Shown here piece by piece: positions 38,665-40,416 of a stretch of 64,000 nucleotides of DNA. Below the pieces are notes generated by a model. That model was not told the origin of the DNA. It was given only the letters and a program-made list of their open reading frames with translations, and did no database searches. This stretch comes from Planctomycetota bacterium (GTDB lineage Bacteria > Planctomycetota > UBA1135 > UBA2386). Within the stretch, counting starts at the first letter, position 1, and each line of letters starts with the position of its first letter. A program made the translations under genes and the position numbers. The stretch is taken from assembly GCA_016713175.1 (NCBI GenBank), contig JADJPQ010000009.1:249652-313651 (forward strand), written 5' to 3'.

Positions 38665-39213
38665 TCAGGCGCACCAGCGTTGTTCGAGCCCGGACAGCAA
38701 CGGCAGCCATTCTTCGCGCGAACTGCGGTCGTGCTGAATCGCAGCGAACGCATTCGGCCAGTCGAGGCGGTCATCCGCCGGCACGCGTGTCATCGCGACC
38801 GCGAAAAGCCCATGTTCTTCCAGGTCCACCATGCGTTCGCAGAGTCCGGCAAGGGACTGGACGGCATCGGCGAAGCCTGCGCATTCGGCCGGAGTCAGAT
38901 CCCCACTCGGTTCCCAGAACAGCACCAGCGAGTGCACGATGGAAAGCGCCTCATCCTGCAGCCGCAGCGCGAGCCCGACCTGTTCGGCGTCGTGGTCGGA
39001 GCCGTGCATCGCAATGGCGGGGAACACCACCTCGCCTTCCTTCCGGAAGTGCACGGCGACGACGAACTCACGCAGGTAGCGAATGGCGCTTGCGCAGTCA
39101 GCGACCGGGAACTCACCGCCGAGTGCGACATGGCGGGCCATCGCGAGCAGCGACACCAGGAGCCTGCGCACGTCGGCATGCTCGTCGCGCAGGGTCTGCG
39201 TTGGCTGGGTCAT
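38665..39213 (-). CDS. Hemerythrin/HHE-like domain protein (degenerate)
   Basis: TLRDEH, HFRKEGEVVFP, LEE..LF; start chosen at ATG 39213. Confidence 0.65.
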   Translation of the reverse strand: MTQPTQTLRDEHADVRRLLVSLLAMARHVALGGEFPVADCASAIRYLREFVVAVHFRKEGEVVFPAIAMHGSDHDAEQVGLALRLQDEALSIVHSLVLFWEPSGDLTPAECAGFADAVQSLAGLCERMVDLEEHGLFAVAMTRVPADDRLDWPNAFAAIQHDRSSREEWLPLLSGLEQRWCA

Positions 39214-39360
39214 CCAGAGTCTTGGCCGCGAGATGCCGGACCGGTGCATGGGAAGGCAACCAACTTCCGTCCTGCCCCCAAAGTTTCGGCACAGGGGCTT
39301 CATGGGGTTGAAGTTGCCCCTGCGACGACGACTCCCCAGACTTTCGTGTTGCGTTAGGTT

Positions 39361-39394
39361 GAACAAAAAGCTAACGTGCTAACAAAACCTGAAC
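39361..39394 (+). promoter_or_regulatory. Candidate operator: GAAC-N7-TAAC and TAAC-N7-GAAC
   Basis: GAAC 39361, TAAC 39372, TAAC 39380, GAAC 39391; same spacing as the repeats in front of lexA. Confidence 0.45.
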
Positions 39395-39408
39395 ACGGAG
39401 CCACAAGC

Positions 39409-39663
39409 ATGACCACGGCCATTTTCCCGCAAAGCCCTCAGTTTGCTGCTTCAACCGCCAGTGTTGCGAAGAGGCGCAGGGTGCCGCTCGTCGGGGCTCG
39501 GCCGGAAGCCCGAATCGCGGCCGTAGTCGCGCCGGCACAGGTTGCCATCTGCGACGTGGCCGCGCCCCATGGCTTTGCGGCAAAACGAGTTGGCTATGCG
39601 CTCGAGACGGTCGCCGCAGGTATCATGATCGCGGGCTACTTGGTTCTGGCCTTGTTCGGGTAG
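39409..39663 (+). CDS. Small hypothetical protein with C-terminal TM helix
   Basis: 84 aa; GGAG RBS 39397-39400; C-terminus VAAGIMIAGYLVLALFG. Confidence 0.6.
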   Translation: MTTAIFPQSPQFAASTASVAKRRRVPLVGARPEARIAAVVAPAQVAICDVAAPHGFAAKRVGYALETVAAGIMIAGYLVLALFG

Positions 39664-39751
39664 CCCGCCTGCTGGCCTGCCATCGACCGCTCGATGCGCA
39701 GCCGGTGGGACTGCGCAGCCCAGTGGGACATCGCCGCCGGTCAGCACGAAC

Positions 39752-39777
39752 GAACGACAAACCAACGGAACGCGAAC
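39752..39777 (+). promoter_or_regulatory. Candidate LexA operator: GAAC-N7-CAAC-N7-GAAC
   Basis: 11-bp periodic half-sites at 39752, 39763 and 39774, just upstream of RBS AGGAGG (39782-39787). Confidence 0.5.
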
Positions 39778-39792
39778 GATCAGGAGGTTCTC

Positions 39793-40416
39793 GTGGAGCT
39801 GATGCTTACGGAGAAGCAGATTCGAGTGTTGCGGTACTTTCGCGACTACCGTCGCGAACGCGGTATCGCACCAACTCTGGACGAAGCGGCGCAAGCGCTC
39901 GGGGTCAGCAAGATCACCGTTCACGAACACTTGAAGCAGTTGACCAAGAAGGGCGCCATTCATCGCGACCGGGCCAAGGCTCGCGCTGTCGCGATCCTGC
40001 TCGACCCGGATGCGGTCGCCGAGCCGCGCACGGCTGGGATGCCGACGTTGCCGTTGGTGGGCATGATCGCGGCAGGTCGCCCGATCGAAGCCGTGGAGGG
40101 TCGTGAGGATCTCAGCCTGTATGACCTGGTTCCGACCGGCGACAACATCTACCTGTTGCGGGTTCGCGGCAAGTCGATGATCGAGGACCACATCGACGAT
40201 GGTGATCTGGTCGTGGTCGAGCGCTGTGAGACAGCGCGCGATGGCGACATCGTCGTTGCGATCCTGGCCGACGAGGAGGCCACGCTGAAGCGGTTCTACC
40301 GCGAGCGCAATGGCCTGATCCGGCTGCAACCCGCGAATGCCGCGATGGAGCCGATCTTCACCGCGGAGGTGCAGGTCCGCGGTGTCGTCCGCGGTGTCAT
40401 CCGCCGCTTCCGCTGA
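39793..40416 (+). CDS. lexA: SOS repressor LexA
   Basis: LTEKQIRVL wHTH, Ala-Gly cleavage site (IAAGRP), catalytic Ser (GKSM) and Lys (TLKRF). Confidence 0.95.
   Translation: MELMLTEKQIRVLRYFRDYRRERGIAPTLDEAAQALGVSKITVHEHLKQLTKKGAIHRDRAKARAVAILLDPDAVAEPRTAGMPTLPLVGMIAAGRPIEAVEGREDLSLYDLVPTGDNIYLLRVRGKSMIEDHIDDGDLVVVERCETARDGDIVVAILADEEATLKRFYRERNGLIRLQPANAAMEPIFTAEVQVRGVVRGVIRRFR

Follow-up and report, generated by a model that had tools for sequence, protein, structure and literature searches.

Uncultured Planctomycetota of one order carry a probable direct-repeat LexA operator at recA and the lexA operon

Which operator does LexA recognize in Planctomycetota, where it does not use the E. 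coli motif (PMC3108266) and where our literature search found no description of a LexA box? The question is raised by a 64,000-nucleotide (nt) stretch of DNA from an uncultured planctomycete (hereafter, the window; Planctomycetota bacterium, GTDB lineage UBA1135; UBA2386, assembly GCA_016713175.1), in which words of the form NAAC recur 11 nt apart, start to start (NAAC-N7-NAAC), both directly before lexA and at the promoter of its upstream neighbour. The window is C9:249652-313651 of the source genome (G000; 7.95 Mb, 69% G+C); below, G-numbers denote genomes compared and L-numbers fetched loci, and the window features described all lie on the forward strand. The motif is conserved, recurs at three SOS-type gene families and is missing from ordinary promoters. 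From these comparisons we regard it as very probable that the repeats form a direct-repeat LexA operator (SOS box).

Phased NAAC words in the lexA operon

The lexA gene occupies positions 39793-40416 and starts with a GTG that aligns with the ATG of relatives. Its 207-amino acid product combines an N-terminal winged-helix LexA domain (PF01726 LexA_DNA_bind, 5e-14) with a C-terminal S24 peptidase domain (PF00717 Peptidase_S24, 7e-27), the architecture of a LexA repressor, and scores 167.8 bits against NCBIfam TIGR00498 (cut-off: 110.95). The self-cleavage residues can be recognized by eye in the translation (Ala-Gly in MIAAGRPIEA, Ser in RGKSMIED, and Lys in EATLKRFY). Judged from this translation, the gene is a bona fide lexA with a predicted cleavage apparatus. 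The recognition helix reads SKITVHEH (SKITVHEHLKQL), and all close homologues of the protein come from metagenome-assembled genomes of uncultured Planctomycetota.

The upstream neighbour (39409-39663) encodes an 84-amino acid tail-anchored protein with a C-terminal membrane helix, ending in AGIMIAGYLVLALFG before the stop codon; the open reading frame (ORF) has no Pfam match and shows atypical codon usage. Small or medium ORFs that share this tail-anchored C-terminus adjoin lexA upstream, on the same strand, in all 23 genomes of the same family that were examined (hereafter, family genomes), and are found before lexA in other families of the order as well. Scanning 39150-39900 for terminators and strict sigma-70 promoters gave no match, including between the small ORF and lexA. 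Because the small ORF always directly precedes lexA on the same strand, with no terminator between them, the two genes look like one operon, and 39349-39394 would therefore be the main lexA promoter-operator. This region is most likely the promoter of the two-gene operon: a -35-like TTGCGT (39349-39354) is followed, after a 17-nt spacer, by a -10-like TAACGT (39372-39377), and this layout (TTG(ACA/TGT/CGT)-N16/17-TAAC(A/G/T)T) is kept at the orthologous position in at least 23 family genomes. The strict sigma-70 scan gives the putative 39349-39377 promoter no score. A blastn comparison of the operon promoter with those of relatives found no DNA similarity, and the short words alone are conserved.

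Two boxes lie in this promoter. Box A, GAAC(39361)-N7-TAAC(39372) (39361-39375), sits in the promoter spacer and overlaps the -10 element; a GAAC stands 11 nt ahead of the -10 TAAC in most family genomes. Box B, TAAC(39380)-N7-GAAC(39391) (39380-39394), begins just past the -10 element and ends 2 nt before the GGAG of the small ORF, and relatives carry [GA]AAC-N7-GAAC at the same place. The word spacings across the promoter are 11, 8, and 11 nt. Using matrices built without G000, box A scores 17.0-18.9 bits, which places it among the top noncoding matches of the 7.95-Mb genome, and box B scores 16.3-18.5 bits. The lexA-proximal boxes (39745-39777, read from the sequence) consist of two interleaved 11-nt series, GAAC(39748)-N7-AAAC(39759) and GAAC(39752)-N7-CAAC(39763)-N7-GAAC(39774). 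All words listed in an earlier interpretation of this DNA (hereafter, the sequence-only reading) are present (GAAC 39361 and TAAC 39372; TAAC 39380 and GAAC 39391; GAAC 39752, CAAC 39763, and GAAC 39774), and the lexA leader holds further AAC words beyond these (GAAC 39748, AAAC 39759, and GAAC 39768). The segment 39745-39765 is the second-best noncoding match in the genome (20.5 bits; matrix without G000). Clean GAAC-N7-GAAC repeats just before lexA are confined to the closest relatives (at -32 in L003, L004, L005, and L007, at -67 in L009, and at -88 in L006) and were not found in 16 other family genomes. An RNA fold in the spacer between the small ORF and lexA was not significant (z = -0.39).

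The phasing is a property of the family. When the 130 nt before the small ORF were compared among 23 family genomes, [GT]AAC pairs occurred 30 times at a distance of 11 nt in these orthologous promoters, against 1-3 times for each of the other spacings up to 20 nt. The base in front of the word is C in 24 and 26 of 28 sites, giving the consensus C[GT]AAC-N6-C[GT]AAC (TGTT[CAT]G-N5-TGTT[CA]G on the other strand), with an 11-base pair (bp) period; at the degenerate position of NAAC, G is commonest, then T, then A. Counts of 4-mer/gap/4-mer dyads, which assume nothing about the motif, placed GAAC-N7-TAAC and its frame-shifted readings at the top (up to 11 of 23 sequences; shuffle maximum: 4). The same arrangement is present in about 25 further Planctomycetota loci. 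Four NAAC words stand in a row at exactly 11 nt in L003, L006, L007, and L009, some relatives carry an extra in-phase GAAC upstream of the -35 element, 22 nt before the spacer word, and word distances of 22 and 33 nt are mildly over-represented. The more distant family members L016, L017, and L024 have the lexA-operon box in reverse orientation. Boxes in the promoter of lexA itself, as expected if LexA regulates its own gene, are conserved in at least 23 family genomes and occur in two other families of the order.

An inverted relation between words also occurs around the -35 region. In the window the inverted word GTTA (39353-39356) forms GTTA-N4-GAAC with box A and is partly kept in the family; the pattern TGTT(C/A)G-N1-2-C(G/T)AACA extends across the -35 region in about half of the family promoters (e.g., GCGTTCGTCGAACAG in L005) and is missing wherever the -35 element is TTGACA.

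A genome-wide habit of A/C-rich leaders or promoters was considered as the source of the words and ruled out with 1354 G000 upstream regions that have Shine-Dalgarno-supported starts, which showed neither an 11-nt peak nor enrichment of GAAC (0.93-fold in leaders). Elsewhere in G000 one triple 11-nt tandem was found, which equals the chance expectation. Matching the plain expression C[GT]AAC-N6-C[GT]AAC over G000 gave 90 hits, mostly in coding sequence, and was uninformative.

The same element at recA and a polymerase gene

Of 29 family recA promoters, 28 share the near-invariant element aTGTTTGGnTTTTGT(TC/AA)GG, with a -10-like hexamer TAGnnT about 8 nt further on. Read on the other strand (CCGAAC-AAAAGC-CAAAC), it is the operon motif reversed, with a spacer that resembles the GAACAAAAAGCTAAC of the window; the recA promoter of G000 itself contains CATGTTTGGATTTTGTAAGGG. 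A matrix built from lexA-operon sites only, without G000, found the recA element (TGTTTGGnTTTTGT(TC/AA)GG) as its best match in 28 of 29 upstream regions. Scores averaged 12.2 bits at recA vs -0.6 in shuffled sequences, and 86% of the regions exceeded the 95th percentile of the shuffles.

For a genome-wide scan of G000, the two promoter classes were weighted equally in the matrix and G000 was excluded from it. The top noncoding matches include recA (30.1 bits), the lexA-proximal site (20.5 bits), and the operon boxes (18.5 and 17.0 bits), interleaved with unrelated matches at C13:153797 (19.2 bits) and C12:298464 (18.1 bits). Matches of at least 15 bits occur in G000 at a rate of 31 per 15.9 million positions, or about 0.001 per 330-nt region. 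None of the other top matches adjoins an SOS gene (C13:153797, enoyl-CoA hydratase/outer-membrane protein; C12:298464; C1:1159659, pseudopilin; C9:176353, GntR-aminotransferase), and we set them aside as probable chance hits.

The third gene family is a second Y-family polymerase, which matches the NCBIfam DNA polymerase IV models below their equivalog cut-offs (hereafter, the DNA polymerase IV paralog). In all 13 family genomes that have the gene, TGTTCG-N5-TGTTAGG stands some 30 nt ahead of the start codon, with scores of 15.7-31.7 bits from matrices from which the polymerase sites had been left out. Several of the genes have a TTGnnn-N16-TATAGn promoter whose spacer is taken up by the box. 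The paralog was not found in G000. With the same motif at recA (28/29) and at the polymerase gene (13/13), the claim of the sequence-only reading that lexA and its upstream neighbour share an NAAC-N7-NAAC operator is supported, and the refuting outcome that it had named for recA and other SOS genes did not occur. Its suggestion that the motif be sought at other SOS genes gave a divided answer: recA carries the box in the family and in several other families, and uvrA, ssb, and the imuA cassette have no box.

Several observations were made beside these genes. A partial second copy of the recA upstream region lies at G000:C6:37780-37870 (GATCCGATGCAACCGG, then GAGCGAGATCCATGTTTGGATCCGGCAAGGG), in which the second box word is destroyed; the copy stems from duplication or from strain variation in the assembly. 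The RecA of G000 has an N-terminal extension (G000:C7:371770-371990) with five tandem KPEVV repeats before the core, and relatives have shorter lysine-rich extensions. UvrA is encoded family-wide as two complete copies fused head-to-tail, about 2000 amino acids long (G000:C7:195628-201309; L157-L183). At C12:298464, the box-like ACTGAACATAAGCCAAAACAA (18.1 bits) stands directly before the start codon of a gene with a TIR-like N-terminus; codon usage in this region is atypical, and it may be a mobile or defence island.

Proposed regulation and competing explanations

We infer that LexA is the binder, because control of lexA by its own product, combined with control of recA and of an error-prone polymerase, is the SOS signature. 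LexA bound to boxes A and B would mask the operon promoter from its spacer through the -10 element to the first transcribed bases; at recA and the DNA polymerase IV paralog it would cover the -35 element and the spacer. So placed, LexA would exclude RNA polymerase. When DNA is damaged, LexA would cleave itself under stimulation by RecA and so free the operon, recA, and, in relatives, the second DNA polymerase IV from repression. The lexA-proximal boxes (39745-39777) probably add further control of lexA, perhaps via a roadblock or a weak internal promoter.

Some results weigh against a LexA operator. The second word at recA is GTAA, rather than GTTC or GTTA, in 15 of 28 sites, including that of G000. 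No box was found at uvrA, uvrB, uvrD, ssb, ruvB, or dinB of G000, as located by tblastn, nor at 30 family loci of uvrA or 28 family loci of the first dinB group. The predicted regulon is thus small, and in G000 only the lexA operon and recA support it. Within a gene family the sites are related by orthology and cannot be counted as independent. Simple promoter occlusion does not apply to the lexA-proximal boxes, which are internal to the transcription unit. Lastly, a symmetric LexA dimer is not an obvious reader of a direct repeat.

One possible answer to this last point is that the box is a phased array, along which LexA would bind head-to-tail on one helix face, with one DNA-binding domain per word, as a cooperative oligomer and not as a discrete dimer on a dyad. 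Such a reading fits the four-word runs at 11 nt and the GAAC placed 22 nt upstream with the -35 hexamer in the slot between; we hold it only tentatively and think it rather unlikely. If true, it would account for the reading of direct repeats by a symmetric repressor, a problem that Alphaproteobacteria pose as well, and would allow repression to be graded by the number of words.

Since the identity of the binder is deduced from sequence, the operator could be real and yet be bound by another regulator, either a second LexA paralog or a damage factor of the PafBC/DdrO kind. LexA-independent damage regulons with promoter-embedded motifs exist in other phyla, and G000 carries a second lexA (34% identity) that heads a lexA2-imuA-imuB cassette. 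This second lexA, however, turned up in no more than about 8 of 24 family genomes, far fewer than have the near-universal box, and the lexA2 promoter has another motif, the perfect palindrome ACCACACAAATGTGTGGT. In every lineage the box stands at the promoter of the primary lexA, as autoregulation predicts, and the half-site of the box is that of LexAs with a similar recognition helix. Moreover, three of the four genomes without a lexA match (G026, G035, and G027) also lack the recA box. On balance, we consider another regulator improbable.

The lexA2-imuA-imuB cassette occupies G000:C26:114849-116900 (L002 1456-3566). Its palindrome ACCACACAAATGTGTGGT lies between TTGTAA and TATAGA (L002 1446-1463) and presumably serves LexA2 as an operator of its own. 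About six tandem copies of the 8-mer CGAGTTCC (L002 1355-1410) closely precede the lexA2 promoter.

That the words belong instead to promoter architecture (spacer, -10, or UP-like elements), or form the target of an alternative sigma factor common to the lexA, recA, and polymerase promoters, seems to us very improbable. TAAC is itself likely the -10 element of the operon promoter, the first recA word overlaps a likely -35 element, and the in-phase GAAC words of some relatives lie upstream of -35. Against such a role, the 1354 ordinary upstream regions show no 11-nt phasing or GAAC enrichment, and the words of the polymerase gene are, at 11 nt, too close for a -35/-10 pair. The orientation and position of the box also change with the lineage: it can face either way and lie before, inside, or after the core promoter, a freedom that a repressor site tolerates but a sigma element does not.

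Hardly credible is the third alternative, mentioned in the sequence-only reading, that LexA binds a stretched Gram-positive box at lexA (GAAC(39774)-N9-GTTC(39787), 39774-39790) and that the direct repeats are incidental: it has the right half-sites, four close relatives share an identical GAACCTGGGAGGGTTC, and AGAAC-N4-GTTCT lies near lexA in other Planctomycetota (L073), but its spacing varies (N8 in L004, L005, L007, and L009, N12 in L019, and N9 here), the Shine-Dalgarno AGGAGG (39782-39787) lies inside it and gives its conservation another cause, it is confined to close relatives and missing in most family genomes, and nothing similar occurs at the operon promoter, recA, or the polymerase gene, so that we do not regard it as the operator.

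Relation to known LexA operators

The direct-repeat LexA operator proposed here is closest in form to the box of Alphaproteobacteria, GTTC-N7-GTTC, known from Caulobacter crescentus, Rhodobacter, and Rhizobium (PMC8565304, PMC9578287). Both are GTTC/GAAC direct repeats with a 7-nt spacer and an 11-bp period, located on the promoters of lexA, recA, and translesion polymerases. They differ in the protein, the word, and the regulon: the recognition helix of the planctomycete LexA resembles the type found in Gram-positives, Chloroflexi, and Patescibacteria, the extended word here, TGTT(C/A/T)G, leaves one position free, and the regulon here is smaller, without uvrA and ssb. The alphaproteobacterial recognition helix is SKSGIHRLITAL.

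Direct-repeat recognition by LexA has been proposed to have several origins, with Verrucomicrobia, Patescibacteria, and Acidobacterium as cited cases, and a new direct-repeat motif was described in Balneolaeota (PMC7739468). For Patescibacteria and Acidobacterium capsulatum, the evolution of direct-repeat recognition is attributed to Sanchez-Osuna 2017 and Mazon 2006, as cited in PMC7739468. Among the fetched loci, Patescibacteria-type lexA promoters (n = 29) contain TTCG pairs 11 times at 11 nt and at no other distance from 4 to 18 nt, with the rest almost only at 20-22 nt, roughly twice the period, and the Bryobacteraceae lexA promoters (n = 2) read (G/T)TTCGG-N5-(A/G)TTCGC. Their recognition helices (SLATVHEH and SLATVHKH) resemble SKITVHEH. 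These operators, as read from the fetched loci, share with ours the period, the core, and the placement in the promoter spacer (TTCG-N7-TTCG), as well as the similar helix, whereas the organisms belong to different phyla and the proteins are 42-46% identical.

The Gram-positive Cheo box, CGAAC-N4-GTTCG in Bacillus subtilis (PMC9578287), shares the half-site CGAAC, a similar helix (VH.HL), and an operator in the promoter spacer; its half-sites, however, are inverted and 8 nt apart from start to start, whereas here they point in the same direction and are 11 nt apart. Chloroflexi (Limnocylindria) lexA promoters have CGAAC-N4-GTTCG in the spacer, and the Planctomycetaceae locus L073 has AGAAC-N4-GTTCT. 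The Verrucomicrobia motif that Erill and co-workers are said to have described in 2016, TGTTC-N4-GAACA, comes from the same superphylum and shares the TGTTC word, and the TGTT(C/A)G-N1-2-C(G/T)AACA of about half the operon promoters here is similar to it; that motif is a palindrome, whereas lexA, recA, and the polymerase gene here have a direct repeat in common.

In a maximum-likelihood tree of LexA proteins, the sequences of the order form their own clade (98% support), apart from other Planctomycetota LexAs, in a polytomy with Patescibacteria-type, Bryobacteraceae, and Chloroflexi LexAs; the only sequence entered as alphaproteobacterial lies on a long branch. The sequence-only reading had suggested an independently evolved direct-repeat SOS box. 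The direct repeat stands, and its independent origin is neither affirmed nor denied by these sequences, because the clade of the order falls in that polytomy. L086, labelled Vitreimonas (Alphaproteobacteria), has a LexA and a promoter of the Patescibacteria type, and its contig is probably mis-binned.

The element thus appears to belong with the direct-repeat SOS boxes, an already known type of switch, in a phylum for which we found no description of one. It would provide a testable LexA-binding motif and a minimal SOS regulon (membrane-protein/lexA operon, recA, and DNA polymerase IV paralog) for an uncultured order of Planctomycetota. It would also be a clean case of a LexA shift between palindromic and direct-repeat operators, with the CGAAC half-site and a similar helix in two arrangements: palindromic in Chloroflexi and other Planctomycetota, and directly repeated with an 11-bp period in this order, Patescibacteria, and Bryobacteraceae.

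Turnover of the proposed operator across the order

Outside the family, the recA box (at least 15 bits) was found in 7 of 16 genomes, at varied positions and in both orientations. It is in reverse orientation in G028 and G036 (27.5 bits each), in the leader in G032 (23.6 bits), upstream of the -35 element in G040 (20.4 bits), and over the promoter in G039 (19.1 bits); further boxes were found in G030 (17.4 bits) and G025 (16.7 bits). Such independent placements of the box would be expected of the targets of a regulator, not of inherited promoter sequence. The recA box is missing in four LexA-bearing genomes of other families. At lexA, two other families of the order carry GTTCGG-N5-GTTCGG in the promoter. 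One family (G031 and G038; loci L030 and L029) has an inverted CTAAC-N12-GTTAG in its lexA-operon promoter and no box at recA, and the operator architecture may have switched again inside the order.

Further features of the lexA operon

A GTTC-N7-GTTC repeat lies in the last codons of the small ORF (39643-39657; 15.0 bits as a minus-strand match) and could be an additional site or simply follow from the VLALFG codons; by eye, without a dedicated position scan, it is missing in the relatives shown (e.g., L004 and L007). Over the whole window, KAAC-N7-KAAC occurs 8 times, vs 2.5 expected from shuffles, with three of the eight in the lexA operon, an excess that by itself is modest evidence and suggestive only.

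The small tail-anchored protein, placed under the box, is a candidate damage-induced cell-cycle, division, or envelope factor; to our knowledge, FtsZ is missing from many Planctomycetota. Among loci L003-L031, the length of this protein is very variable (about 56 to >200 amino acids), and its C-terminal helix, ending in LVLALFA or LVLALFG, is kept.

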